Positions 1-11,696 of a stretch of DNA of 11,696 nucleotides are shown here, piece after piece. Every line of letters begins with the position of its first letter. The first letter of the stretch is position 1. Below the pieces are notes generated by a model. It saw nothing but the letters and a program-made list of their open reading frames with translations. It had not been told where the DNA came from and ran no database searches. The position numbers and the translations under genes were made by a program. The stretch is from a virus. Its lineage: Duplodnaviria > Heunggongvirae > Uroviricota > Caudoviricetes. Location: the IMG/VR virus record IMGVR_UViG_2617270952_000003; one strand, written 5' to 3'.

Positions 1-318
1 ATGAAAAAGATAGCTGCTATATCATTAATTAGTATTTTTATTGTGTCTGGTTGTGCTGTGCATAATGATGAGACAAGTATCGGTAAATTTGGTCTTGCAT
101 ATAAAAGTAATATTCAGCGTAAACTCGATAACCAATACTACACCGAAGCCGAAGCTTCTTTAGCCAGGGGCAGAATATCTGGTGCAGAAAATATAGTAAA
201 AAATGATGCAGCCCATTTCTGTGTTACTCAGGGCAAAAAAATGCAGATAGTTGACCTGAAGACAGAAGGTGCAGGATTACATGGCGTCGCTCGTCTGACA
301 TTCAAATGTGGAGAGTGA
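1..318 (+). CDS. Putative lipoprotein in the left host flank (105 aa)
   Basis: ORF starts at the window's first base with a hydrophobic signal-like N-terminus and a lipobox-like VSGC motif (MKKIAAISLISIFIVSGC). Lies outside the prophage att core. Confidence 0.55.
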   Translation: MKKIAAISLISIFIVSGCAVHNDETSIGKFGLAYKSNIQRKLDNQYYTEAEASLARGRISGAENIVKNDAAHFCVTQGKKMQIVDLKTEGAGLHGVARLTFKCGE

Positions 319-477
319 GAATATTTTTTGGTAAGCGTCAAACATGCGCGTTCTGGTTGTGCTTAGCCGGAACCTGTGCGAGCACGATGCCGTTACGTGA
401 AAGGCATCGTGCTATGAAGGGAGATTCTATCGATGTGGTCAATGGAAGACGGTTACCAGAGATAGGGCTTATGCATA

Positions 478-504
478 AAAAAATAAGCCCGTGTAAGGGC
501 GTTT
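478..504. other. Putative attL core of the P2-like integrase
   Basis: AAAAAATAAGCCCGTGTAAGGGCGTTT matches the P2 attP/attB core as recalled from memory (AAAAAATAAGCCCGTGTAAGGGAGATT) at 25 of 27 positions. It lies about 80 bp beyond the 3' end of int, as in P2. Confidence 0.55.
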
Positions 505-583
505 ATATACCCTTACAACAGGGGCTTTCAGCGGTGCAATGCGGGTTTGCGCGGCACGCAAGACCACTGAAAGCCATAATAAA

Positions 584-1597
584 CTACCCTACTGTGGACA
601 CTGTGTGGACACTCTGAGAGCCAACACCACCACGTAGAGGATTAAGCGTTATCGCGTCCTGTAGGTACTCAGGGGCGAAGTGCGCATATGTCATTGTCTG
701 CTCAATTCTTGAATGCCCAAGTATTCTCTGAAGCGTGATAATGTTGCCTCCGTTTATCATAAAGTGCGTGGCGAAGCTGTGCCGCAATGCGTGCGTAGCC
801 TGACCCGGTGGTAGGTCGGGTTTCAGCTCCTTCATTAGCCGTCTGAACGCGGGATAGTTAGCATCAGTGAACAGATAGCCACGCTTACCCGTTGTGATCA
901 TTGTTGCCAGTTCCTCGGATATAGGAACGGTTCGCGGCTTGTTGGTTTTTGTCTTAACGAAAGTGACGCGATTTTGAATGATATTTTCCGCTTTCAGTTT
1001 TGCTGCCTCACTCCATCTCGCGCCGGTGCTAAGGCAAAGAATCGCAATTTTTTTATTATCACCGTCCACTTTTGACAGCAGAAGCGCGATCTCCTCTTGC
1101 GTCAGGTAGCCGGTTTCTGGCTTATCCTCTTTGAGTCTTTTAAGACCTCGGAAAGGATGCTCCCCGAAAAATAGCTCCGCATCTATCAACGCGGTAAACA
1201 TCCCGCTAAGACACGTTAAATCACGATTTATACTCGATGGCTTGATGCCTTGAGAACGCCGCACAGTGCTGTATTGGCTTATCAATGACTTAGTAATCTG
1301 AAAGGCACAAGGGTCACTGGTTATCTTTGTGAACAACTCTAACTTGCCCAGGTAATCTCGGCCGTGAGTTTCATACTTGCCTTTCAGCTCCCACCAGATT
1401 TTTGTTAGCTCTGACAGATGCCGCTTATCTGTCGGTTTCGCCAACCATTCTTTGTTGTGATGGTTGTACTGGGTATGCTTCTCGAAAGCGATAGCTTCGC
1501 TTTTCTTGTCAAATTTCCTGCGGATGCGCTTTCCGTTGCGCCCTGCAGGTCTAATGTCCACTTCATAACGACCATCATCGAGCTTTTTAACAGACAT
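584..1597 (-). CDS. int: Tyrosine integrase, P2 Int-like
   Basis: Minus-strand ORF. I place the start at the internal Met (MSVKKLDDGRYEVDIRP...), which has a GGGAGG Shine-Dalgarno just upstream on the minus strand. C-terminal region has tyrosine-recombinase motifs (HALRHSFATHF, LGHS...TMTYAH). Sits next to the att core. Confidence 0.9.
   Translation of the reverse strand: MSVKKLDDGRYEVDIRPAGRNGKRIRRKFDKKSEAIAFEKHTQYNHHNKEWLAKPTDKRHLSELTKIWWELKGKYETHGRDYLGKLELFTKITSDPCAFQITKSLISQYSTVRRSQGIKPSSINRDLTCLSGMFTALIDAELFFGEHPFRGLKRLKEDKPETGYLTQEEIALLLSKVDGDNKKIAILCLSTGARWSEAAKLKAENIIQNRVTFVKTKTNKPRTVPISEELATMITTGKRGYLFTDANYPAFRRLMKELKPDLPPGQATHALRHSFATHFMINGGNIITLQRILGHSRIEQTMTYAHFAPEYLQDAITLNPLRGGVGSQSVHTVSTVG
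593..612. repeat. Direct repeat TGTGGACAC x2, possible Int arm-type binding sites
   Basis: TGTGGACAC occurs at 593-601 and 604-612, one helical turn apart, beside the att core and overlapping the 3' end of int. It resembles the P2 Int arm-site consensus as I recall it. Confidence 0.35.
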
Positions 1598-1693
1598 AAA
1601 GCCTCCCGATGATGTTACTGCGTACTTCAATTTCCTGATTTAAATAACAAAAACTCACCGTGCATTTACTGCACAGATAAGCACCGTAAATGG

Positions 1694-1990
1694 TTAGCCA
1701 GTTTTCTGGTCTGAGTGGGGTGACGTTGTTGTCTGCTGCCCAAAGTGCGCGAGAGCCGGTGCAATCTGCCCAGCTTCTGGTGATATCGTCTCAGTCATGA
1801 ACCACATGGTATATTTTTTGAACTGTGGATGATTCAAAATCTTCATCACTGCTTGTATGCCCATATCTTTTACTCCCTTCTCATAACTAGAAAGAGAGCT
1901 ATACGGAACTCCAGTTAAGTCACTGAATTCTTTTCTATTCATACGTTCCGACTCACGCATGATGGCCAGCTTCTCGTTGACGGGTATCAT
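1694..1990 (-). CDS. C: Immunity repressor, P2 C-like (about 98 aa)
   Basis: Divergent from cox and upstream of int, as in P2. Start placed at the internal Met (MIPVNEKLAIMRESERMNRKEFSDLTGVPYSSLSSYEKG), which gives an HTH-like N-terminus. The C-terminal tail (QIAPALAHFGQ...TTSPHS.QKTG) matches my recollection of P2 C. Confidence 0.75.
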   Translation of the reverse strand: MIPVNEKLAIMRESERMNRKEFSDLTGVPYSSLSSYEKGVKDMGIQAVMKILNHPQFKKYTMWFMTETISPEAGQIAPALAHFGQQTTTSPHSDQKTG

Positions 1991-2073
1991 CGTAATTAAC
2001 ACTCCACTATTGATAGAAAAACGATAACGGAGTAGTCTTCGCTTCGTTACCGCAGATTTATGGCTCCAATATG

Positions 2074-2104
2074 GCAATTAAAAGCCATTAGGAGCAATTA
2101 AAAC
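2074..2104. promoter_or_regulatory. Putative C-repressor operator / early promoter region (direct repeats GCAATTAAAA)
   Basis: GCAATTAAAA occurs at 2074-2083 and 2094-2103, 20 bp centre to centre, in the C-cox intergenic region. P2 C repressor is known to bind direct repeats flanking the early promoter. A GAGGAA ribosome-binding site precedes cox. Confidence 0.4.
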
Positions 2105-2125
2105 ACTAACGAGGAATAGTCACAA

Positions 2126-2401
2126 ATGAATAGGGTCATTGAGAGCGCGAGCGACGCGGTTCCGTATCAGGAGTTTGCGCGTCTTATTGGTAAAACCCCT
2201 GCTGCTGTCAAAGGGATGATTGAGAAAGGCAAACTACCGATAGTTGAGATGACTGATCCGCAGTCTACAAGTGGGAGAGCAGGGGAATACTGGGTATATC
2301 TGCCAGCATGGAACAAAGGCATGAAGATGGCCTATGACAGTCGCCCTAAAGAAATTCGGGATGGTTGGTTGATGTGGTTGGGATTAGGTGAACCAGCATA
2401 A
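2126..2401 (+). CDS. cox: Cox-like excisionase/transcriptional regulator (91 aa)
   Basis: First rightward gene, divergent from C. Length matches P2 Cox (91 aa). Position and orientation are as in P2. Confidence 0.7.
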   Translation: MNRVIESASDAVPYQEFARLIGKTPAAVKGMIEKGKLPIVEMTDPQSTSGRAGEYWVYLPAWNKGMKMAYDSRPKEIRDGWLMWLGLGEPA

Positions 2402-2411
2402 GGAGCCAGAA

Positions 2412-2582
2412 ATGAAAGAGCCACGTTGTATAGCTCAGTTACTGCGTAACGAAAGTCCACGCCCGATGAAGTTCAACATCACTCATGGTAAAGGGCGTAA
2501 AGGCATCATCATCCGCACTCGCAAGCCTGGATTTATTGCTATGGCTAAACGCTTTATGAAATCCCGAGGGATATCGTTATGA
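2412..2582 (+). CDS. Small early-region ORF (56 aa), P2 orf78-like by position
   Basis: ATG at 2412 is preceded by AGGAG with a 6-nt spacer. Its stop overlaps the start of B (ATGA at 2579-2582). Basic small protein. Confidence 0.5.
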   Translation: MKEPRCIAQLLRNESPRPMKFNITHGKGRKGIIIRTRKPGFIAMAKRFMKSRGISL

Positions 2583-3079
2583 CGGTTATGACTCTTGCAT
2601 TAGTTCAAAAACAACCTGCAGCTCTACGCGTCGTTATAGGAAAGCATCTTGCGGAACCTCGCTGGCACGATACCTGTGATTTTTATAATCAGATGATGGA
2701 GCGTGACCGCTTGACTGTCTGTTTTCATGCTCGGTTAAAACAGCGTCACGCAGTAATGCGCTTTGAAGAAATGAATGATGTCGACCGCGAACGTCTGGCT
2801 TGTGCTATCGATGAGCTGCGCGCTGCTTTTTCAAAACGTCGTCAGGTTGGCGCAAGTGAATCTGCATATATTAGTTTTCTAACGGTGGGTCAGCGCCGCT
2901 CTTTATTTCTACACGCGGGATTGAGTGAGGTCGAGTTCAATCAGCCTTACTGGCGCATTGACGAAGATGCTTGTTATTGGCGAGAGAAACTATTCCGCGC
3001 TTTGCGTGAGCTTTTTGGGTTATTTGAACACGCGCCAACGATATTAACCTCGGTAAAGCCTGAGCAGTATTTACATTAA
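2579..3079 (+). CDS. B: Replication accessory protein, P2 B-like (166 aa)
   Basis: Same length as P2 B (166 aa) and same position between cox/orf78 and A. Translationally coupled to the upstream ORF. Confidence 0.6.
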   Translation: MTVMTLALVQKQPAALRVVIGKHLAEPRWHDTCDFYNQMMERDRLTVCFHARLKQRHAVMRFEEMNDVDRERLACAIDELRAAFSKRRQVGASESAYISFLTVGQRRSLFLHAGLSEVEFNQPYWRIDEDACYWREKLFRALRELFGLFEHAPTILTSVKPEQYLH

Positions 3080-3145
3080 TTAATCTGGATTCGTTTTATT
3101 ACACGCCTTACTGCGTGGGGATTCCTTTTGTCTGGAGATAGGCAA

Positions 3146-3364
3146 ATGCATAAACAAAATAAAGTGCCGACGTGTGTGCTCTCGGTACATCTGGCGCAAG
3201 CGTTGCGCGATGCGCAGCTCGATACCGCGACCCGTTTATCCTCTCATTTTGATCGCCTAATTGCGCACATCAGTAAGTTAGAACTCAACCGCACCGAGAT
3301 CATCGAGCTATTGGGGCAAGAGTCCGAAAAATTGCACAACTCAATTTTTCATTGTGCTTGCTAA
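3146..3364 (+). CDS. Small early-region hypothetical protein (72 aa)
   Basis: ATG at 3146 with GGAG upstream. Lies in the P2 orf80-83 interval. Confidence 0.45.
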   Translation: MHKQNKVPTCVLSVHLAQALRDAQLDTATRLSSHFDRLIAHISKLELNRTEIIELLGQESEKLHNSIFHCAC

Positions 3365-3386
3365 TCAATTTTAGAAGGAGACAAAA

Positions 3387-3662
3387 ATGAGTATCCGTAT
3401 CGAGATAAATCATCAGTATGTAGTTACAAGCGATCGCTACCAGTTCATTTTGCAGGAAAAGAAAGTGGCGACTGCTGGAAAAAATAAAGGTAGCGAATGG
3501 CTTGATACTGTCGGGTATTACCCGACGATTCAAAAACTGATTTCTGGTCTGGTGCTACATGACCTTTTAAATGGCGGTGCTGATAGTTTTGCGGCGTTGG
3601 GTGAGCAGGTCGAGCAGTTGGGACTGCAATGTCAGACCGCGTTTTGTGCTGATGGCCGTTGA
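3387..3662 (+). CDS. Early-region hypothetical protein (91 aa)
   Basis: Strong ribosome-binding site (GAAGGAGACAAAAATG). Its stop overlaps the A start. P2 orf82/83-like by position. Confidence 0.55.
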   Translation: MSIRIEINHQYVVTSDRYQFILQEKKVATAGKNKGSEWLDTVGYYPTIQKLISGLVLHDLLNGGADSFAALGEQVEQLGLQCQTAFCADGR

Positions 3663-5943
3663 GACTCGGGGGCGTATTGCCCCCTCGCTAGCCCTGCCAA
3701 TATCTAAGCGCACCGGCGATACTTTCGTTGGTGCTTATCCCTGGAATGCTCCCCGCGCTGCCATTGGCCGTGACAGACCCCTTACACGTGCCGAATTCCG
3801 TCAGGTGCAAGGTGTTTTATACCGGATTGACCGCCTGCCTTTCTTTCTTAAGACGTTGTTTACTTCCCGTTATAACTTCATTCGTCGCACAAAGAGCCCG
3901 CCCGGGGCGCTCTATTTCCTGAAAAACACCTTTGAGCGGAAGCTGTTGCCGCGTCTTGAGCGCGTTAACGAGCTGTGCGGGATGAATGAATCTGCGTCGA
4001 TTGGTTTCTTGTCTGAGCGTGACGAATATGCGCGCTTGCCTGATATGAATGACAAAGAGCTGAAAAAATTTGCGGCCAGAATTGCCGCGCAGCTCTGGCG
4101 TAAATACGAGGAACTCAGCGACGAATGGGCTGAGGCATTCGGCGGTAAAGAGACCCTTTTCACCGATGAGGCGCAGGTGCACATATATGGTCAGGTGGCT
4201 GGTGTTGCACGCGCGTTCAACTTAACCCCGCTCTACTGGAAAAAATACCGTAAGGGTCAGATGACGATCCGCATGGCGTTTTCCGCTATTTCCCGTCTGA
4301 TAAAAGATGATTGGTGGGTTAACCAGCTCAAGGCGCAGCGTATGCGCTGGCGCGAGGCGCTGCTTATCGCTGCCGGTGAAGTCAACAAAGACCGTTCACC
4401 TTACGCCAGCAAAATGGCGATCCGCGAGGTTCACTCGCGCCGGCTGGCTAATCTCGAATACCTGAAATCCTGTGAGCTGGAAAACAAAGTTACCGGCGAA
4501 CGTATCGACCTCATCAGTAAAGTCATGGGGAGTATTTCAAACCCTGAAATACGCCGTATGGAGCTGATGAACACCATTGCCGGAATTGAACGCTATGCGG
4601 CCAGCGTTGGTGATGTGGGAATGTTTATCACGCTGACCACGCCGTCGAAGTATCACCCGACCCGACAGGTCGGCAAAGGTGACAGCAAAACGGTGCAGCT
4701 CAATCACGGCTGGAACGAAACCGCATTCACCCCTAAAAACGGCCAGCGCTATCTGTGCCGAATCTGGAGCCTGATGCGTACCGCTTTCAAAGATAACGAT
4801 TTGGAAGTGTATGGGATGCGCGTTGTCGAGCCGCACCACGACGGCACGCCACACTGGCATATGATGCTTTTTTGCAAACTCAGTCAGCGTAAAGCTATCA
4901 ACGAAATTATGCGTCGTTATGCCCTCAAAGAGGACGGACACGAAAAGGGCGCGGCAAAACAGCGCTTTGAGTCGCGTCACCTTAATCAGGGGGGCGCGGC
5001 GGGTTATATCGCCAAATACATTGCCAAAAATATCGACGGCTACGCGCTTGACGGTCAGCTCGATCACGATACCGGCAAATCTCTGAAAGATACGGCCGCA
5101 GCCGTAACCGCATGGGCGTCTACATGGCGTATCCCTCAGTTTAAACCGATTGGCCTCCCGACAATGGGCGCTTACCGCGAACTGCGTAAGCTGCCGCGCG
5201 GGGTGAGTATCGCCAGCGAGTTTGACGACCGTGTCGAGGCCGTCCGGGCTGCTGCAGATGAGGGGGAATTTGACCTGTACATCAGCGCGCAGGGTGGGGC
5301 AAACATGCCGCGTGATGCTCAGGCGGTCAGGGTCGCCCGTAAGGTGACGGATGAGGTAAACGAATACGAGGAGGATATCGAGAAAGTGGTCGGTATTTAT
5401 GCCCCTCATCTTGGGGTGAGCCGCGTACATGTAACCCGTACAGCGGAATGGCGCATAGTTCCAAAGGTTTTGGCCGTTGAGCCTTTGACCTTAAAAAGCG
5501 GCTCTGCCGCGCCTCGGAGTCCTGTCAATAACTGTGGAAAGCTTGCCGACGGTGGCGATCCAGTTATGACACCTACACCGTCTGAGCAAGCCGCAGCGGT
5601 GTTAAATCTGATTGAGGCCGGGGTTATCGGCTGGAATGAGCCAGACGTCATGAAGGTTCTTAACGGCGCGTTAAAAGCTGGCGCACCTCGCAATAATCGC
5701 CAGCAAAGAAGCAATGCGCCACTCAAAACGAGCGAGCAAGCTCCATCAGCCAGGATGACAAAACCAGAAAGGGATCGCGTGGCGAAAATTCGTTTCGATT
5801 TGGCTCAGGAGGGCATTACCCCGGAACGGTGGGCGCTCGAAGCGCTGGCGCGTGGGGCAACGGTGATTTATGGCGATAAAAAAATCAAATACGCGGCTGC
5901 TGATGAGTGGCCGGGATTCTCAATTCAAGAGGAGCAGAATTAA
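3652..5943 (+). CDS. A: Rolling-circle replication initiator endonuclease, P2 gpA-like (about 763 aa)
   Basis: HUH-type motif PHWHMM at nt 4849-4866 and twin-tyrosine motif GYIAKYIAKN at nt 5002-5031, both hallmarks of the phiX174-A / P2-A initiator superfamily. Start placed at the internal Met MAVETRG (3652), giving a length close to P2 A. Confidence 0.85.
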   Translation: MAVETRGRIAPSLALPISKRTGDTFVGAYPWNAPRAAIGRDRPLTRAEFRQVQGVLYRIDRLPFFLKTLFTSRYNFIRRTKSPPGALYFLKNTFERKLLPRLERVNELCGMNESASIGFLSERDEYARLPDMNDKELKKFAARIAAQLWRKYEELSDEWAEAFGGKETLFTDEAQVHIYGQVAGVARAFNLTPLYWKKYRKGQMTIRMAFSAISRLIKDDWWVNQLKAQRMRWREALLIAAGEVNKDRSPYASKMAIREVHSRRLANLEYLKSCELENKVTGERIDLISKVMGSISNPEIRRMELMNTIAGIERYAASVGDVGMFITLTTPSKYHPTRQVGKGDSKTVQLNHGWNETAFTPKNGQRYLCRIWSLMRTAFKDNDLEVYGMRVVEPHHDGTPHWHMMLFCKLSQRKAINEIMRRYALKEDGHEKGAAKQRFESRHLNQGGAAGYIAKYIAKNIDGYALDGQLDHDTGKSLKDTAAAVTAWASTWRIPQFKPIGLPTMGAYRELRKLPRGVSIASEFDDRVEAVRAAADEGEFDLYISAQGGANMPRDAQAVRVARKVTDEVNEYEEDIEKVVGIYAPHLGVSRVHVTRTAEWRIVPKVLAVEPLTLKSGSAAPRSPVNNCGKLADGGDPVMTPTPSEQAAAVLNLIEAGVIGWNEPDVMKVLNGALKAGAPRNNRQQRSNAPLKTSEQAPSARMTKPERDRVAKIRFDLAQEGITPERWALEALARGATVIYGDKKIKYAAADEWPGFSIQEEQN

Positions 5944-6407
5944 TGAGCAAAATCCATGAGTTAAAAATTGCACCTGAGTATTTTAACTCTGTGATATCTC
6001 AGGAAAAACGTGCTGAATTTCGTCTCAATGACCGCGATTATTCTAGCGGTGATATTCTCGGGTTGCATGAATGGGAACCGGTAAACAGATATACCGGGAA
6101 ACGTGTATCAGTGAGGGTGACAAACGTTACGGATTTATCTGAATGGGCGGAAAATTATGTGATGCTGAGTTTTCAGTTAATGATGCCAGATGTCCAGTGC
6201 GGTATGTCCCTAATGAACTGGAAAGAGTTAAGCGAGAAGGGGCTTGTTTTCAGAGTTAATCACGAAATTCTACACCCGTTAGGGCTGGCTATTAGATATG
6301 AAACACTTAACAGCGTTTCTGGTAGGGCTTACATCGCTGATGATGGTGTCTGGCAATATTCCGACAAGTTGGTCGCAGATGCTAAAAAAAATGGGTGGTT
6401 AAAATGA
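5943..6407 (+). CDS. DUF3850 / ASCH-like protein (154 aa), P2 orf91-like by position
   Basis: Start overlaps the A stop (TAATG) with a GAGGAG ribosome-binding site. N-terminus MSKIHELKIAPEYFNSVISQEKRAEFRLNDRDY resembles the DUF3850 (ASCH-like) fold family found downstream of A in P2-like phages. Confidence 0.6.
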   Translation: MSKIHELKIAPEYFNSVISQEKRAEFRLNDRDYSSGDILGLHEWEPVNRYTGKRVSVRVTNVTDLSEWAENYVMLSFQLMMPDVQCGMSLMNWKELSEKGLVFRVNHEILHPLGLAIRYETLNSVSGRAYIADDGVWQYSDKLVADAKKNGWLK

Positions 6408-6643
6408 GTCATATGCGAATGATGCCAGTGCCGCCGATACATTCAACGCAAAACATTAAGCTGATGGCCGTCGTACATCGCCTGCAACAAATTATGATTA
6501 ACGAGAATCTGACCCCTGACGAACTGGTCGGGTGTGCCGGTGTCGTCCGGGATAATCACCGCAAATACAGCGATATCAGCAATCCGAAAATTGAGGCGTT
6601 TCGGCCACCAAATATGGCAAAGCCACCACCGCGTCGACCATAG
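6404..6643 (+). CDS. Hypothetical small protein (79 aa)
   Basis: ATGA overlap with the preceding ORF's stop and GGTGG upstream. No recognisable motifs. Occupies the position where P2 carries tin/old. Confidence 0.35.
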   Translation: MSHMRMMPVPPIHSTQNIKLMAVVHRLQQIMINENLTPDELVGCAGVVRDNHRKYSDISNPKIEAFRPPNMAKPPPRRP

Positions 6644-6925
6644 CAAACGCCGCCGGTGCTGAAACTTGTTTTCAGTGCCAGCGGTGTTGAGCAACGAGCC
6701 CCGCGAGACGTTAGCCTGCACCGTAGAGACCACCCCCAACCGGCACGATTAAAGTCGGTTTTATTATGCAATTTTCCCACAATTTCCCGGTTTTTTAGCC
6801 GTGCATGCAACAGGTGCATTTTTTTGCATACGTTGGGGATGCCTGTTCTGGCCGCGCGCCGCCAGAGCAGGCGCGGATCCAGAGTGGTCATGCAACTGCA
6901 TTAAAAACGACCCATAAAGCGGGCA

Positions 6926-6944
6926 GGCGAGGCGGGGTAAGCAT
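6926..6944. other. Putative cos site (19-nt cohesive-end sequence)
   Basis: GGCGAGGCGGGGTAAGCAT matches the P2/186/P4 cohesive end as recalled (GGCGAGGCGGGGAAAGCAC) at 17 of 19 positions. It sits in a GC-rich non-coding stretch (6644-6943). Confidence 0.5.
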
Positions 6945-7015
6945 TGCGCGCGCCTGTCAAAGATATTAAGATTGTCTCAAAATCGATTGATTTTATTGAA
7001 CTAATGGAGCTAGGA

Positions 7016-8572
7016 ATGATTAAGGGTATAGGTCTTCAAAACTTCAGGAGCTTTGTCAACAAAACGTTTATTGATTTAAAACCAATTACAGTATTTGTTG
7101 GTAAGAACAGCAGTGGTAAAAGTTCCCTATTGCGCACATTTCCTTTACTTCGTCAATCTGTAGAAGAAAATACTACTGGCCCAATACTATGGTATGGGAG
7201 ATATGTGGATTTTGGCGATTTTACAGATGTACTTTCCCGAAACTCTGAAAAAAAAGAAATTACGTTTAGTTTTTCACTCTCAATTCCGCCAGAGGTTTCA
7301 CAAAGATATACATATTATCGTTCTACTGATTTAGCAAAGCAACCAACAGATATTGAAGCAGAGTTAACTGTTTACTCTAAAGATAAAAAAACAAAAACGA
7401 AAACGATTAAGCTTATATTGGCTGATTTAACAATATTTATTTCAATGGATGAGAGTAGTAATGTTAAATTACTCATTGAATCAGATGATAAAACAATAGA
7501 GCGTGATGGGATAATAGCTAAAAATCTTGGGCAGTTCATACCAAATCTAATTTTGAAGGGTAAGGAAGACAGTCCTCCTCCAAGCACATCATTCTATTTG
7601 AGACATTCTAGGCATGACAGGGCGTTAGAATTGTCATTTATTGATTCAGCGGCGAAATATATAAAGAAATATTTCCATACTAAATCTGATATAAATCAAG
7701 TGACAGAGGCATTCAAAAGAATTGGCTTTATACCCAAAGCGTACGCTAGTAAATTAGTTGCTTTTCTATTTAAGGAACAAAAAGTTTTTAGTAGAAACTT
7801 TGAATTTCAACATGATGAAATAATGAATGAGTTATATCCATTTATAATTGGATGGAATATTAATAATCTTATAGATATAATAAATACATCCTTGTCAGAT
7901 TCATTCAGAAATGTAAAGTACATAGCTCCACTGCGTGCTACATCAGAAAGATTTTATCGTTTTCAAGATTTACAGGTTAATGAGATAGATCATACTGGTT
8001 CCAATCTTGCAATGCTTTTGAATTCATTAAGACCGGCTGATAAATCAAAATTTGAAGATTGGACAAAGTTAAATTTTGATTTCATTATCAAGGTTGAACA
8101 AAGTGGCTCTCACTTTGCAATTTTAATAAACACCGGTGAAAATAGTGAGAACTATAATGTTAGTGATATGGGGTTTGGTTATTCTCAGGTTTTGCCGATA
8201 GTTACAGCCATTTGGCTTGAGACAGAACGTCGTGCTACCACGGTTAGAAAACCTATAACATTTATCATTGAGCAGCCAGAATTGCATTTACATCCGTCAT
8301 ATCAGCATAATTTAGCAAGTATTTTTGCAAAAGTAGTAACTAAAGCAAAAGAAAATAATGTAGATTTGAAGATAATTTTTGAGACACATAGCCAGACCAT
8401 GATTGAAGCACTTGGTGAATATATTGAGGAAAATGAAAGTCTTTCACAGGATGATATTTCAATACTGGTATTTGAAAAAGATGATAAGCAGCAGACTATA
8501 GTTAAGAAATCTTATTTTGACGAGAATGGTTTCCTAAAAAATTGGCCGGTTGGCTTTTTCTCGGGTAAGTAG
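7016..8572 (+). CDS. OLD-family / AAA_21-type ABC ATPase (518 aa), candidate defense ATPase (PARIS AriA-like or Septu PtuA-like architecture)
   Basis: Walker A GKNSSGKSS at nt 7101-7127. Walker B / D-loop FIIEQPELHLHP at nt 8261-8296. Signature-like SDMGFGYSQ and H-loop-like FETHS. Lys/Thr-rich insert (KDKKTKTKTIK) between the ATPase lobes. ATG at 7016 is preceded by GGAG. The gene is AT-rich relative to the phage backbone. Confidence 0.8.
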   Translation: MIKGIGLQNFRSFVNKTFIDLKPITVFVGKNSSGKSSLLRTFPLLRQSVEENTTGPILWYGRYVDFGDFTDVLSRNSEKKEITFSFSLSIPPEVSQRYTYYRSTDLAKQPTDIEAELTVYSKDKKTKTKTIKLILADLTIFISMDESSNVKLLIESDDKTIERDGIIAKNLGQFIPNLILKGKEDSPPPSTSFYLRHSRHDRALELSFIDSAAKYIKKYFHTKSDINQVTEAFKRIGFIPKAYASKLVAFLFKEQKVFSRNFEFQHDEIMNELYPFIIGWNINNLIDIINTSLSDSFRNVKYIAPLRATSERFYRFQDLQVNEIDHTGSNLAMLLNSLRPADKSKFEDWTKLNFDFIIKVEQSGSHFAILINTGENSENYNVSDMGFGYSQVLPIVTAIWLETERRATTVRKPITFIIEQPELHLHPSYQHNLASIFAKVVTKAKENNVDLKIIFETHSQTMIEALGEYIEENESLSQDDISILVFEKDDKQQTIVKKSYFDENGFLKNWPVGFFSGK

Positions 8573-8574
8573 TT

Positions 8575-9687
8575 ATGTTGATTAATATCGAAAATGCGAC
8601 ACCTGAGAAGGTGCTAAATAACTCATTTGCCATAGCGGTTGAAAATATACTTCGGGCATTCGCTGAACAAAAACACTTGGTTATAGGGGCAAGGGTTTTT
8701 TTTAAAACTATTATCAATGATCAAAGCGGGCTTTATAGCCTTTCATCAAAAAGTTACGCGCAAGAGGCTTTGTCGGGTCTAACAGAGTACTATGCTATCT
8801 TGGATCAGGTCTCATTTTATGTATCTGTCGACTTTAATATTAGTGATAAATCATTTAAATGGGTTCAGATCGGTGAATCTTTTAAATTTGTTTGTGGTCC
8901 ATTGTATTTTAATGACTCGGCACAATTGCAAAAAACGAAAATAGTATGTGAAAATCCTTTGGATTCTGATTTTTTTAAGGTTATAGCGGCTCATTATGCC
9001 GAAGGTATTAACTTATCTCGCTGCGAAATGGGTTTTATCGCTCTAAATGGCGGTGGGGGCAGTACTAAGGATATATTCGAGCGTGCAATTCAAAATAATG
9101 AGATAGTTTTTTGTATTGTGGATAATGACAAAAAACATCCTGGAGCCCCATTCGGAGGTACTTGCTCACATTTTTTGGGCTCACAAATTACTCGCTCAGG
9201 TTTCGTGGAGATTTTAGATGTACATGAAATAGAATCTCTAGTTCCTTTATCGACAATTGAAGATGTATTAAGAAGTCAAAGTCAATTGCAACAAAAAGAA
9301 AAATCTCTCATTTTCTTTAAGCATCTTTGCTCCGTAGATGAATCAGTAAAATTTTATATTGACCATAAAAAAGGTTTTGATTTTAAAACAGCCCTTGAAC
9401 TCGATCGAAAACATGGTGCATATTGGCGTCCGATATTAAAGAAGCTTGATATAAAATATGATTGTGAGTATATCGAATCAAAACGTTGTAGCTGCAACGC
9501 TGCTTGTGTAAGTTATGATGGTTTTGGAGAGAATTTGCTCAGCAATACATTGAAATATATACAAAAGGGAAGTTTAAAAAAATATAATCCTCACCTAACA
9601 CCAGTGCTTTCTGATAAATGGTATAAGTTAGGTAAGAATTTCTTTAGTTGGAGTTGTGGTCCATATAAAAAAGCAAGGGTTGGTTAA
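8575..9687 (+). CDS. TOPRIM-like (DUF4435-like) putative nuclease partner of the ATPase (370 aa)
   Basis: Start is 2 nt after the ATPase stop, suggesting translational coupling. TOPRIM-like motif 1 IVCENPLDSD (Glu at residue 126, nt 8950-8952) and DxD motif CIVDNDKK (nt 9121-9129) about 57 residues later. Gly-rich loop NGGGGS between them. C-terminal Cys cluster CEYIESKRCSCNAAC. The assignment is from motifs only. Confidence 0.55.
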   Translation: MLINIENATPEKVLNNSFAIAVENILRAFAEQKHLVIGARVFFKTIINDQSGLYSLSSKSYAQEALSGLTEYYAILDQVSFYVSVDFNISDKSFKWVQIGESFKFVCGPLYFNDSAQLQKTKIVCENPLDSDFFKVIAAHYAEGINLSRCEMGFIALNGGGGSTKDIFERAIQNNEIVFCIVDNDKKHPGAPFGGTCSHFLGSQITRSGFVEILDVHEIESLVPLSTIEDVLRSQSQLQQKEKSLIFFKHLCSVDESVKFYIDHKKGFDFKTALELDRKHGAYWRPILKKLDIKYDCEYIESKRCSCNAACVSYDGFGENLLSNTLKYIQKGSLKKYNPHLTPVLSDKWYKLGKNFFSWSCGPYKKARVG

Positions 9688-9690
9688 ATT

Positions 9691-9727
9691 ATCACAGCCC
9701 CGATAAAGTGGGCTGTGATGTTATTAT
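9691..9727 (+). terminator. Rho-independent terminator of the cargo operon
   Basis: Inverted repeat ATCACAGCCC / GGGCTGTGAT (9691-9700 and 9710-9719) with a 9-nt loop, followed by a T-rich run (GTTATTATCTG), just after the partner gene stop. Confidence 0.5.
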
Positions 9728-9782
9728 CTGTGGTTCTTGAGTTACAGGGCTGAATATAATGTTGAGATGTTTATTTTGAAAA

Positions 9783-10232
9783 TCAAAGTGAATATTTTTT
9801 AAATCTTATAACTTCCATTTCTAACCAGTTGTTTAGTTCTTTGAACCGTTCCTGTAAAGGAGTTAACTCATTTCGGACAAACACTTGTGCAGCTTTTACA
9901 ACATCACCAAAACCGCCAACATTGTTAGGCATAATTCCCATCATTTGTGGTGGTACCCTATGAGCACTCAACAAATCTTCTGCACTAACCTTTTTGATAT
10001 TGAAAAAATCATCTTTCGTGGCGACTTCACTCAACGGCACAATCTTGATGCCATCCGGTTTGCCGTTGGGCGCGTAGAAAAACAAGTTTTTGAAATTCCC
10101 GAGTCCTTTCGAGTCACGCATCGCGTTGCGGAGCGACTCGACGTCGGTACACAGCCTCAACGGGAGCGGCTTCACGACGGGCTTAGAGCTTGAGGTTAAG
10201 GTTTCTGATGTGGAGTATGAAAGCGAGGAAGT
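9783..10232 (-). pseudogene. Q: Portal protein gene fragment (3' portion only), P2 Q-like, truncated
   Basis: Minus-strand frame encodes ...LLSAHRVPPQMMGIMPNNVGGFGDVVKAAQVFVRNELTPLQERF..., which looks like the conserved C-terminal region of PBSX/P2-family portals. Only about 130-150 codons remain (P2 Q is about 344 aa). The frame is closed by a stop at 10233-10235 and ogr occupies the upstream space. Confidence 0.6.
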
Positions 10233-10316
10233 TTAACGGCGTGTGTTGTTTATGTGTTTGTTTTATAAGTAAAAATTAGTAAAATTAACACATTGAATAC
10301 GCCGGAGACCCTCATC

Positions 10317-10538
10317 ATGTTTCATTGTCCGAAATGCCATCATGCCGCCCACGCCCGCACGAGTCGCTATTTTACTGATACCACAAAAGAGCGGTATCAC
10401 CAGTGCACAAACATTAACTGCAGCTGCACGTTTGTGACCACTGAAACAGTCGAGCGTTTTATCGTGTCGCCGGGGGAAGTAGTACCCGCGCCGCCGCATC
10501 CGACATCATCAGGTCAGCAACAAATTCACTGGATGTGA
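10317..10538 (+). CDS. ogr: Ogr-family zinc-finger late-gene transcriptional activator (73 aa)
   Basis: MFHCPKCHHAAHARTSRYFTDTTKERYHQCTNINCSCTF carries the C-x2-C...C-x4-C zinc-finger signature of P2 Ogr / P4 Delta. GGAGA ribosome-binding site 8 nt upstream. Confidence 0.9.
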   Translation: MFHCPKCHHAAHARTSRYFTDTTKERYHQCTNINCSCTFVTTETVERFIVSPGEVVPAPPHPTSSGQQQIHWM

Positions 10539-10546
10539 CAAACGAG

Positions 10547-10572
10547 AAAGCCCCGCGAATGCGGGGCTTTTT
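10547..10572 (+). terminator. Rho-independent terminator downstream of ogr
   Basis: AAAGCCCCGC-GAAT-GCGGGGCTTT hairpin with a GC-rich stem, followed by TTTTT. Confidence 0.8.
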
Positions 10573-10844
10573 GCAACTTTTAGATCAGTTATGTTAAGTA
10601 CATTTCCGTCGGCAAAGTGCCAGGAGCGGGTTCTAGAGAGTGACTAACGTTAGTTATATGTGTAAAATTCCTTAAAAATAAGAAGGATATATATCCATGA
10701 CAGCAATTGCATATTGGATTAACTGAGAATCAATTGAGAAATTTTGGGGGGGGCAAAAAATAAACTAGCTAATTAAATTTTTATAAATAACGAATATAAG
10801 ACTGCAAGCCATTTAACAAAAGTTTATAAATAAAGGAGTCAGTT

Positions 10845-11696
10845 TTGAACAATATCCCCATATCTACTCAATGGACTTTAGACGCTACGGGTGAAGTTGG
10901 ACGCTCATCAGTAAATTCTGTTTATATGATTATATGTCCTGCGACAGGCTCGAAAGGATCTGGTTTTTTAATAGATAATGGGTTAATAGTAACGAACGAG
11001 CATGTTATCACTGGATGCTCTACAAATCAGATTTTCGCAATTTCAGCTTATGGACAGAAGATTCCAATTTCTCAAAAATGGATAGATTCTGATCGCGATT
11101 TAGCTGTGCTGAGACCTGCCATTACCCAGACTGGTGGGCTAAGTATTGTTAAGGATAATGATCTTAAAGTTGGTGAATCAGTAACAACTTGGGGATACCC
11201 ATTAGGATACAACGGTCCTGCACCGTTACTATCCGTTGGTTATCTAGCAGGATTTAACTCATACCAAACCGCCAAGGGACAAAAAAAACATCTAGTGGTA
11301 AATGGGGCATTTAACTCAGGAAATTCTGGTGGAGCTCTTTTAAAAGCTTCAGATAATAAAGTAATAGGTATTGTAGTGAGTAAGCATGCTCCTATCAGTC
11401 AATACCATCAATCAGCTATTGAAGCTTTGTCTGAAAATATGAGTGGCGTCACCTATACCGCTACTAATGACGCTGGAGAAACTAAAAGTTTTGTAGAATC
11501 TCAAATTGTAGCAGAATTATTGATTCATATGAGAAGTCTAACTCAAGTTATGATTGGAGAAGCAATTGCAGCAGAGGAATTACTTTCGATGCTTAGCGAA
11601 ATTGACTTGAGTCCACCACAATCTATGTCAAGAAATGCCTTATGTCATTGCGGGAGTGGAAAACGCTTCAAAGAATGTCATGGAAAGATATCCTAG
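10845..11696 (+). CDS. Trypsin-like (S1/Trypsin_2) serine protease with C-terminal SEC-C zinc-binding motif (283 aa)
   Basis: Catalytic triad contexts TNEHV (His), DRDLAVL (Asp) and GNSGGAL (Ser). C-terminal CHCGSGKRFKECHG is a SEC-C motif. TTG start with AAGGAG 7 nt upstream. AT-rich. The ORF ends exactly at the window edge (TAG at 11694-11696). Confidence 0.7.
   Translation: MNNIPISTQWTLDATGEVGRSSVNSVYMIICPATGSKGSGFLIDNGLIVTNEHVITGCSTNQIFAISAYGQKIPISQKWIDSDRDLAVLRPAITQTGGLSIVKDNDLKVGESVTTWGYPLGYNGPAPLLSVGYLAGFNSYQTAKGQKKHLVVNGAFNSGNSGGALLKASDNKVIGIVVSKHAPISQYHQSAIEALSENMSGVTYTATNDAGETKSFVESQIVAELLIHMRSLTQVMIGEAIAAEELLSMLSEIDLSPPQSMSRNALCHCGSGKRFKECHGKIS

Follow-up and report, generated by a model that had tools for sequence, protein, structure and literature searches.

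A P2-like prophage at the yegR-cyaR site of Escherichia coli very probably reduced to a satellite-like gene set by a recent 21-kb deletion

Introduction

P4-like satellites are defined by seven core components, int, psu, delta, sid, alpA, epsilon and alpha, at least five of which must be co-localised for an element to be classified as P4-like (PMC8628076). According to packaging experiments, a cos site alone is enough for the P2 terminase to package circles of 5-10 kb, as was seen with plasmids that carried only the P4 cos (PMC2231350), and P4 lacking sid is packaged as multimers into heads of P2 size (bioRxiv 10.64898/2026.03.30.715334). Defective prophages have also been discussed as "proto-hitchers", for which superinfection exclusion is the bottleneck (PMC11389934), and defective P2-like prophages retain defence genes that scarcely differ from the versions in intact phages (PMC13586616). 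A known cargo hotspot of P2-like genomes, located between gpA and gpQ, adjoins cos (PMC9122126).

In this study, we analysed a stretch of DNA of 11,696 nucleotides (hereafter, the window). A preliminary description regarded it as a remnant with exactly the gene set of a helper-dependent satellite, which a P2-like helper might mobilise. We conclude that the window very probably contains a defective P2-like (Peduoviridae) prophage, integrated between yegR and cyaR, where P2 classically inserts, that has recently lost 21 kb.

Results

The early region and the comparison with P2

The element and P2 (NC_001895) share the order int-C-cox-orf78-B-orf80-...-A-orf91-(hotspot)-cos-Q...D-ogr-att, and they have in common the att core, the Int, IHF and Cox site sequences, the ori block and cos from -30 to +7. 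The inventory of integrase, C/cox switch, B/A replication genes, cos and Ogr given in the preliminary description is real. None of int, C, cox, B, A and ogr is truncated, all are collinear with their P2 counterparts at protein identities of 60-84%, and matches to the Pfam families Phage_Cox, Phage_GPA and Ogr_Delta were obtained (Table 1). Protein A has kept the HUH and YxxxY motifs, and the nick block of the P2 ori, located at 5506-5543, is identical to that of P2, with a predicted nick near 5516. No inactivation was found in int or A; the complete prophage described below has identical copies of both genes and also of cox, B, ori, attL and attR, none of which is damaged in the element. The element differs from P2 in that the tin/old cargo of P2 has been replaced, its own cargo lies on the opposite side of cos, an additional peptidase cargo occurs past ogr, and the late genes are gone.

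Because the C protein is merely 60% identical to that of P2, its immunity class probably differs and the phage would probably be heteroimmune to P2. A search among the small ORFs for a 186-type Tum antirepressor or another inducibility function returned only PHROG families of unknown function. No deposited phage is more than 83% identical to the early region, and the activity of the parent is vouched for by no isolated phage.

Table 1. Features of the window (positions from its first nucleotide)
Feature	Position	Strand	Description
attL core	478..504		22-nt P2-type core AAAAAATAAGCCCGTGTAAGGG at 478-499, same as attR and P2 att core; phage-side (P') arm next
P' arm	505..613		Cox-binding region and tandem Int arm sites CTACTGTGGACACTGTGTGGACAC; conserved with annotated P2 attP
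int, tyrosine integrase	584-1597	-	337 aa; 84% identity to P2 Int, full length
C, immunity repressor	1694-1990	-	98 aa; 60% identity to P2 C
cox, excisionase and Pc repressor	2126-2401	+	91 aa; 73% identity to P2 Cox
orf78-like ORF and replication gene B	2412..3079	+	
B	2579-3079	+	166 aa; 83% identity to P2 B
DUF2732 (orf80-like) and DUF5405 (orf83-like)	3146..3662	+	small early ORFs
A, replication endonuclease	3652-5943	+	763 aa; 74% identity to P2 A
DUF3850/ASCH protein (orf91-like, extended) and 76-aa ORF	5943..6643	+	76-aa ORF without assigned function
cos	6887..6951	+	19-nt cohesive end GGCGAGGCGGGGTAAGCAT at 6926-6944, within block conserved with P2, 186 and P4
Two-gene AT-rich cargo	6944..9687	+	32-37% GC; in known gpA-gpQ hotspot (PMC9122126)
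AAA_15/AAA_21/DUF3696 ATPase	7016 or 6944 to 8572	+	
ATPase partner	8575-9687	+	370 aa; without family
Hairpin	9691..9719		read from sequence; between convergent cargo operon and Q
Portal gene Q, 3' fragment	9783-10150	-	C-terminal ~120 of 335 aa; P2 Q residues ~220-339
Deletion junction	10146..10150		5-bp microhomology GGTAC common to both parental breakpoints
Tail gene D, 3' end	10146-10236	+	last ~30 codons
ogr, Ogr/Delta zinc-finger late activator	10317-10538	+	73 aa; 73% identity to P2 Ogr
ogr terminator	10547..10572	+	near-identical second copy just before P arm, outside window
Trypsin-like peptidase, C-terminal SEC-C motif	10845..11696	+	between ogr and attR, inside prophage

The boundaries of the element

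On the left, the flank shared with K-12 extends to position 495. On the right, the 27-nt P2 core is present without mismatch as attR, which overlaps the 3' end of cyaR 239 bp beyond the end of the window and occupies the same position in the intact relatives and in the deletion strain's own contig. The arms of both att sites have the Int, IHF and Cox site sequences of P2, as judged against the annotated P2 attP. Because attR lies outside the window, the length of the element between the true att sites is 11,457 bp rather than the approximately 10 kb first proposed, and the right end formerly placed at 10700 must be abandoned, since TAAAAATAAG at that position is a chance partial match. A reading of 10673-10698 (TAAAAATAAGAAGG...) as attR was rejected in favour of the perfect core. 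A tRNA scan of the window gave no match, and neither did an Rfam scan inside the window; the sole Rfam match, CyaR, was found past the window end in a relative locus (L002) that was scanned together with it.

The cos site

The phage records of 186, EtG, SEN1 and PSP3 terminate exactly at the nucleotide that corresponds to window position 6925, which places the cohesive end immediately downstream. Judged by conservation rather than by mapped cos requirements, the site is intact where P2, 186 and P4 agree, that is, over the block of about -30 to +7 that the three share. The cohesive end has a single substitution, T in place of A at position 13. This T13 variant is shared with four further, divergent contigs of P2/186-like phages and is therefore probably tolerated. 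The P4 cos region aligns with 6887-6951 at 86%, and the sequence upstream of cos resembles that of 186 (85%). The site is located between the A region and the cargo and does not adjoin Q.

Two cargo modules

One cargo module comprises the AAA_15/DUF3696 ATPase and its partner, and the other is the trypsin-like/SEC-C peptidase. The ATPase matches the profiles of NsnB (5e-55), PDC-M55A (8e-46) and AriA (1e-31). For the partner, no Pfam family was obtained even at E<=5, and the only match, to PDC-M55B, was weak. On the basis of these family resemblances, the two genes probably constitute an anti-phage system. PARIS (AriA/AriB) was considered for 6944-9687 and rejected, because NsnB and PDC-M55A outscore AriA and the partner has no DUF4435/TOPRIM family. 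The hairpin that follows the module probably acts as a bidirectional terminator.

The parent prophage and the deletion

An intact P2-like prophage of about 32.5 kb occupies the same yegR-cyaR site in 35 complete E. coli genomes (for example, NZ_CM142784.1, 2734.6-2767.3 kb, and NZ_AP021944.1, 1806.8-1839.8 kb). It agrees with the element in att site, cos, cargo and early region; however, it has 21,044 bp, with every head, lysis and tail gene, that the window does not have. Over positions 1-10150, the window matches intact prophages at 100.0% identity (10,150 bp, 0 substitutions), and these go on through the complete Q-P-O-N-...-D series; over 10146-11696, it matches their D-ogr-peptidase end at 99.9% identity. 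A single 21,044-bp deletion thus separates the window from the intact prophage. Its breakpoints are located in the portal gene Q and near the 3' end of the tail gene D, and the parental flanks are unrelated on either side of the 5-bp overlap. The late operons (portal, terminase, capsid, lysis and tail) are reduced to the 3' third of Q and the end of D; therefore, the prophage is defective. The ogr gene was retained because it lies beyond the end point of the deletion, as it does in the cryptic prophage PR-X of K-12.

PR-X occupies the same locus in the same orientation and has kept ogrK and yegZ, a fragment of D, beside cyaR. It is only 629 bp long, everything from the att core to D having been lost, whereas in the present element the whole early region is preserved, together with cos and the cargo. 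PR-X and the present element arose by independent deletions.

The distribution of the junction

The deletion junction was found in none of 5,426 complete E. coli genomes, nor in the GTDB species representatives, IMG/VR or the JGI metagenome contigs. It is present in one Logan contig, found in two samples, which is 100% identical to the window and lies at the same chromosomal site; this contig is 20.6 kb long and reaches yegQ-baeSR. The cargo protein of the parent is indexed in 3,015 collection blocks. In the protein look-up, which sees only assemblies in which the truncated portal ORF of 112 aa was called, that ATG-start junction ORF matched 7 contigs, and the junction was found in one of them (L019) only; the others seem to have frameshifted or interrupted portal genes or to be contig fragments. 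The 130-aa GTG-start form of the junction ORF had no record. Complete genomes and contig collections under-sample the diversity of E. coli. The preliminary description had suggested a survey for the element at different att sites; in the searches above, the junction occurred at the ancestral site alone. One contig, an ancestral site and zero substitutions relative to the parent give no sign of horizontal spread.

The comparison with P4

According to the preliminary description, the surviving genes parallel what P4 needs to be packaged by P2. The parallel holds for a cos recognised by P2-family terminases and for an Ogr/Delta-type activator, and both elements have a tyrosine integrase and a size of about 11.5 kb, the lengths being strikingly close (11,457 bp, or 11.46 kb, vs 11,624 bp, or 11.62 kb, in P4). 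In other respects it is superficial. When P4 proteins were compared with the window by tblastn, the single match was Delta, at ogr; Sid, Psu, Epsilon and alpha gave none, nor did alpA (P4 ORF88/Vis), and the P4 Int is unrelated to the element's integrase at E <= 0.01. The window thus has no homologues of the genes by which P4 manipulates its helper, those for redirection of capsid size (Sid) and for helper derepression (Epsilon), although ORFs without assigned function might encode functional analogues. Replication in the element relies on P2-type A and B with a rolling-circle ori, and in P4 on alpha, ori and crr; immunity is conferred by a protein repressor in the former and by RNA in the latter; and P4-like elements are dispersed over lineages and sites, whereas this element is not. 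The gene set is also not "exactly" that of a satellite. The genes named are present, but so are the DUF3850/ASCH gene, small P2 ORFs and the two cargo modules. The co-localised core components number fewer than the five of seven by which P4-like elements are recognised (PMC8628076), and because only Delta/Ogr and cos are common with P4, we consider that, by sequence, the element is not a P4-like satellite.

Discussion

Origin of the gene set

P2-type phages have all their head, lysis and tail genes side by side, in a single stretch that reaches from cos/Q to ogr. A single deletion of this stretch therefore leaves a "satellite-like" set. We propose that illegitimate recombination between two GGTAC pentamers, one in Q and one in D, very recently removed the 21,044 bp from a prophage of about 32.5 kb and would have yielded att-int-C-cox-B-A-cos-cargo-Q'-D'-ogr-cargo-att without selection for that set. 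The remnant would then be an intermediate in decay toward the state of PR-X in K-12 and not an evolved satellite. It presumably makes no particles and would serve its host as an island of immunity and defence, in which C would repress its own early operon and those of homoimmune superinfecting phages, and the ATPase pair, and perhaps the peptidase, would exclude other phages. As it stands, the element is one more defective prophage of little importance. However, it is a clean worked example, with its parent, breakpoints and microhomology known exactly, and it indicates that a "satellite-like gene set" can arise as a by-product of P2 genome geometry.

Selection for a defence island

An island of this kind could also have been favoured by selection, if the loss of the lytic genes removed the risk of host killing while C, the ATPase pair and the peptidase were kept. 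The deletion does spare the cargo genes and C, which is reminiscent of the defence genes in other defective P2-like elements, near-identical to those of intact phages (PMC13586616). Nevertheless, we consider such domestication unlikely. With 0 substitutions in 10,150 bp, the deletion is so recent, and its junction so rare, that selection cannot be inferred. An island would have no use for int, cox, A and B, yet all four are intact; this is the pattern predicted by neutral, very recent loss. Moreover, P2-type prophages are already non-inducible, so little would be gained by losing the late genes.

Mobilisation by a helper

It is also conceivable that the remnant behaves as a satellite-like "proto-hitcher", which in the presence of a P2-like helper would excise, replicate by means of A, B and ori, be cut at cos, be packaged as a dimer or trimer and spread its defence cargo. 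The cis sites attL, attR, ori and cos and the genes for Int, Cox, A and B are all intact at the sequence level; every site and function for excision, replication and packaging has therefore been kept, rescue by a helper appears mechanistically possible, and the sequence contains nothing that would preclude efficient mobilisation. The packaging of P4-cos plasmids (PMC2231350) and of sid-less P4 multimers in P2-size heads (bioRxiv 10.64898/2026.03.30.715334) supports the same view. Two routes can be envisaged, one through multimers in T=7 heads (2 x 11.46 = 22.9 kb or 3 x 11.46 = 34.4 kb, both within the size range of P4 multimers) and the other through T=4 heads formed with Sid from a co-resident P4. 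The presence of the T13 cos in the four divergent contigs is also in its favour.

However, P2 biology itself poses barriers to this route. The C repressor of P2 is not SOS-inducible, the A protein is cis-acting, and the P2 terminase acts on circular DNA, so that an integrated, repressed remnant is no substrate. Rescue would require derepression of a non-inducible P2-type switch, either spontaneously or by an antirepressor of the P4 Epsilon type, and a heteroimmune helper that evades the cargo defences; such a helper is not expected to lift the repression exerted by the element's C. The C protein of the remnant is identical to that of the parent; the parent, which would be the best-matched helper, is therefore excluded, which is the bottleneck identified for proto-hitchers (PMC11389934). 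The element also has no recognisable late promoter on which Ogr could act, as TGT-N12-ACA dyads occur at chance level (2 seen vs 2.7 expected), and Sid, Psu, Epsilon and alpha are missing. Finally, the distribution seen, a single contig from two samples, still at the ancestral site and with zero divergence from the parent, gives no sign of spread. We regard active hitching by this remnant as improbable.

Counterparts of the element include the proto-hitchers (PMC11389934) and the defence-retaining defective P2-like elements (PMC13586616), which are likewise deletion derivatives of phages of the helper type; as in proto-hitchers, a packaging signal and defence cargo are kept and movement is possible only with functions supplied in trans. 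Unlike those cases, its single causal deletion and its parent have been identified exactly, and it is known from sequence alone. The element is thus an ordinary defective prophage and, at most, a "proto-hitcher". If rescue did occur, it would offer a tractable start for asking whether one deletion can make satellites or hitchers from helper phages, and would make it possible to test what limits immunity and defence cargo set to that step (the bottleneck of PMC11389934). A special form of rescue, in which the cell contains a heteroimmune P2-like helper and also, as the source of Epsilon and Sid, a P4-like satellite, and the remnant rides on the two as a monomer in T=4 heads, seems to us very improbable; if true, it would be a snapshot of how reductive evolution can turn a member of a helper lineage into a satellite.

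The idea that the deletion is an assembly artefact joining two parts of an intact prophage, to which the 0 of 5,426 complete genomes with the junction might lend weight, can hardly be credited, because an independent Logan assembly contains the junction at 100% identity in a 20.6-kb contig that reaches into yegQ-baeSR, and a 5-bp repeat would be far too short for a false k-mer join.

Other cos-bearing loci

Among 85 cos-bearing IMG/VR loci, none combines an early region, cos and ogr with a loss of the late genes, in a screen that is weak, as IMG/VR is biased towards regions that contain virion genes and the 85 loci are truncated. One of the 85 (L057) is a P2-like element with a different deletion of head genes.

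Deletion of the late genes

The element is a P2-like prophage of an ordinary kind that has newly become defective. Over positions 1-10150, the window matches at 100.0% identity a prophage present in 35 complete Escherichia coli genomes; in these genomes, the prophage runs on into the portal, terminase, scaffold, capsid, lysis and tail genes. Over positions 10146-11696, the window matches the D-ogr-peptidase end of these prophages at 99.9% identity. The two alignments overlap at GGTAC, with unrelated parental sequence on each far side, and the missing segment measures 21,044 bp in the coordinates of CM142784, one of the genomes with an intact prophage. The junction k-mer is GACTCGACGTCGGTACACAGCCTCAACGG. 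An intergenic tract upstream of the peptidase gene (10744-10752) reads T4G8 in the window and T5G7 in the intact relative L002 according to two sequence read-outs judged by eye. The 99.9% identity of the right-hand 1.5 kb implies one mismatch, which may be this difference.

In P2-type genomes, all virion and lysis genes form a single block with cos/Q at one end and ogr/att at the other, and any single deletion within this block leaves int, immunity, replication, cos and ogr behind. The retention of ogr is positional, and Ogr-type promoter dyads on which Ogr could act did not occur above chance in the window. The K-12 cryptic prophage PR-X, in which the deletion begins in the att core and only ogrK and a D fragment are left, shows a later stage of decay at the very same locus. 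In the unrelated P2-like IMG/VR contig IMGVR_UViG_2574180000_000003, a different head-gene deletion adjoins cos. This second defective P2-like element (positions 1-7000 of locus L057) has lost its head genes, so that lysis and gpR/gpS genes directly adjoin cos, and its cargo comprises an 827-aa helicase-like gene and a CdiA-CT RNase A/CdiI pair.

The junction was found in none of 5,426 complete E. coli genomes, and GTDB representatives, IMG/VR and JGI metagenome contigs likewise lacked it. When the truncated portal product was looked up, one Logan contig with the junction was retrieved (SRR1186493; two samples carry the contig). From position 5514 to the window end, this contig and the window are 100% identical, and the contig runs on into yegQ-parDE-yegP-baeRS, the chromosomal site of the intact prophages. 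The cargo protein of the parent occurs in 3,015 indexed blocks of the same collection. The deletion is very recent, because there are no substitutions relative to the parent across 10 kb, and as far as can be seen it is confined to one lineage. The Logan contig ends at window position 5514, inside an ori block (5506-5543) perfectly shared with P2, so the same sample may contain a further P2-like element that could serve as a helper.

Boundaries and early region

The P′ arm that follows the attL core contains a Cox region and tandem Int sites matching the annotated P2 attP. A perfect 27-nt P2 core, attR, lies 239 bp past the window end, both in the intact relatives and in the contig of the strain with the deletion; this core overlaps the 3′ end of cyaR, and the P arm that precedes it has P2-like Int and IHF sites. 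Therefore, the element is 11,457 bp long (parent, ~32.5 kb), the peptidase gene lies inside the prophage, and the end point at 10700 initially proposed is not the att site. The attP of the excised circle would read P arm TTACATGC, core AAAAAATAAGCCCGTGTAAGGG and P′ arm CGTTTATATACCC. Immediately to the left of the real attL core, positions 411-445 (GAAGGGAGATTCTATCGATGTGGTCAATGG) consist of the end of a P2 att core joined to the start of a P2 P-arm Int site, and K-12 has the same sequence. This segment, now in the "bacterial" arm, resembles a scar left by an older P2-like occupant.

In the early region, every base of the P2 ori nick block is kept, and the HUH and YxxxY motifs are present in A.

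Features of the element and its left flank
Feature	Position	Strand	Remarks
yegR	1-318		Chromosomal; left end of window
attL	478-499		P2 attachment core AAAAAATAAGCCCGTGTAAGGG; sequence match
int	584-1597	-	Full length, collinear with P2 Int, 84% identity
C	1694-1990	-	Full length, collinear with P2 C, 60% identity
cox	2126-2401	+	Full length, collinear with P2 Cox, 73% identity
orf78-like ORF	Between cox and B
B	2579-3079	+	Full length, collinear with P2 B, 83% identity
DUF2732 and DUF5405 ORFs	Between B and A
A	3652-5943	+	Full length, collinear with P2 A, 74% identity
DUF3850/ASCH gene and 76-aa ORF	After A
AAA_15/AAA_21/DUF3696 ATPase	Within 6944-9687		Best PADLOC matches NsnB, PDC-M55A, AriA
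Q remnant	9783-10150		C-terminal third; late-gene fragment
D remnant	10146-10236		Last ~30 codons; late-gene fragment
Trypsin-like peptidase with SEC-C motif	10845-11696		After ogr; second cargo gene

The cos site

A 19-mer at 6926-6944 differs from the P2 cohesive end by two mismatches, and no such match is expected by chance. The deposited genomes of 186, EtG, SEN1 and PSP3 all end exactly at window position 6925 (83-88% identity, ~280 bp aligned upstream), and these record ends fix the cleavage site. The cos junctions of P2, 186 and P4 were circularised and aligned with the window. The only block common to the three extends from about -30 to +7 relative to the cohesive end, with additional GGTGCAT/TTGCAT motifs upstream, and the window aligns across this block. 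The AT-rich cargo of the window begins past +7, and the divergence of the window there is no defect because P2, 186 and P4 already disagree among themselves. Position 13 of the cohesive end (window 6938) is T, whereas it is A in all seven phages examined (P2, 186, P4 and four others). In IMG/VR, T13 is rare, with five contigs, the parent lineage included, compared with more than 120 carrying A13. Because the four other T13 contigs are clearly divergent and P2/186-like, T13 is probably a tolerated cos variant.

Cargo genes

The GC content falls to 32-37% across 6944-9687. This two-gene cargo begins 7 nt past the cohesive end, in the gpA-gpQ hotspot that adjoins cos (PMC9122126). The ATPase scores higher against NsnB and PDC-M55A than against AriA in PADLOC, and its 370-aa partner matched no Pfam or PHROG family; together they are a candidate for an uncharacterised anti-phage pair.

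The peptidase gene has the ogr terminator on one side and a second, near-identical terminator on the other (window 10547-11696; 8552-8745 in the relative locus L002), the latter lying directly 5′ of the P arm. This position between two terminator copies points to a site for cargo insertion between ogr and attP. The peptidase may be a single-gene defence candidate, because its protease domain matches RT-Protease_XI, PDC-M35A, LmuA and HamA in PADLOC.

Possible mobilisation by a helper and comparison with P4

As judged from the sequence, everything that excision, rolling-circle replication and cos cleavage require in cis sites and trans functions is intact, including cos, int and A, the inactivation of which the preliminary description regarded as evidence against mobilisation by a P2-like helper. 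Plasmids of 5-10 kb with the P4 cos alone are packaged in P2+P4 infections (PMC2231350), and P4 without sid enters P2-size heads as multimers (bioRxiv 10.64898/2026.03.30.715334). Low-frequency laboratory rescue of the element is plausible. However, the P2 C repressor does not undergo SOS induction, the P2 A protein is cis-acting, and the substrate of the P2 terminase is circular DNA; therefore, the integrated, repressed remnant would be no substrate until derepressed. In addition, the parent phage is homoimmune and would be excluded as a helper, a heteroimmune helper would not lift the repression, and the cargo may attack helpers. Because of these barriers of derepression, immunity and cargo, we consider meaningful biological mobilisation of the element very unlikely. 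Such a bottleneck has already been described for "proto-hitchers" from defective prophages (PMC11389934). Mobilisation is thus a legitimate but generic possibility, unsupported by the population evidence.

The preliminary description also held that the remnant retains exactly the gene set of a helper-dependent satellite. Its inventory of int, immunity, rep, cos and ogr is largely borne out, with early proteins that are full length relative to P2, but "exactly" was an overstatement and the boundaries were wrong. Of the P4 proteins, Delta alone matches the window, at ogr, and of the P4 DNA, the cos block alone matches. The P4-like family has seven co-localised components, of which at most two are missing (PMC8628076), whereas the element has one, or possibly two if any integrase counts; by gene content, it is not a P4-like satellite. 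The sole curiosity of the element is its P4-like size of 11.46 kb.
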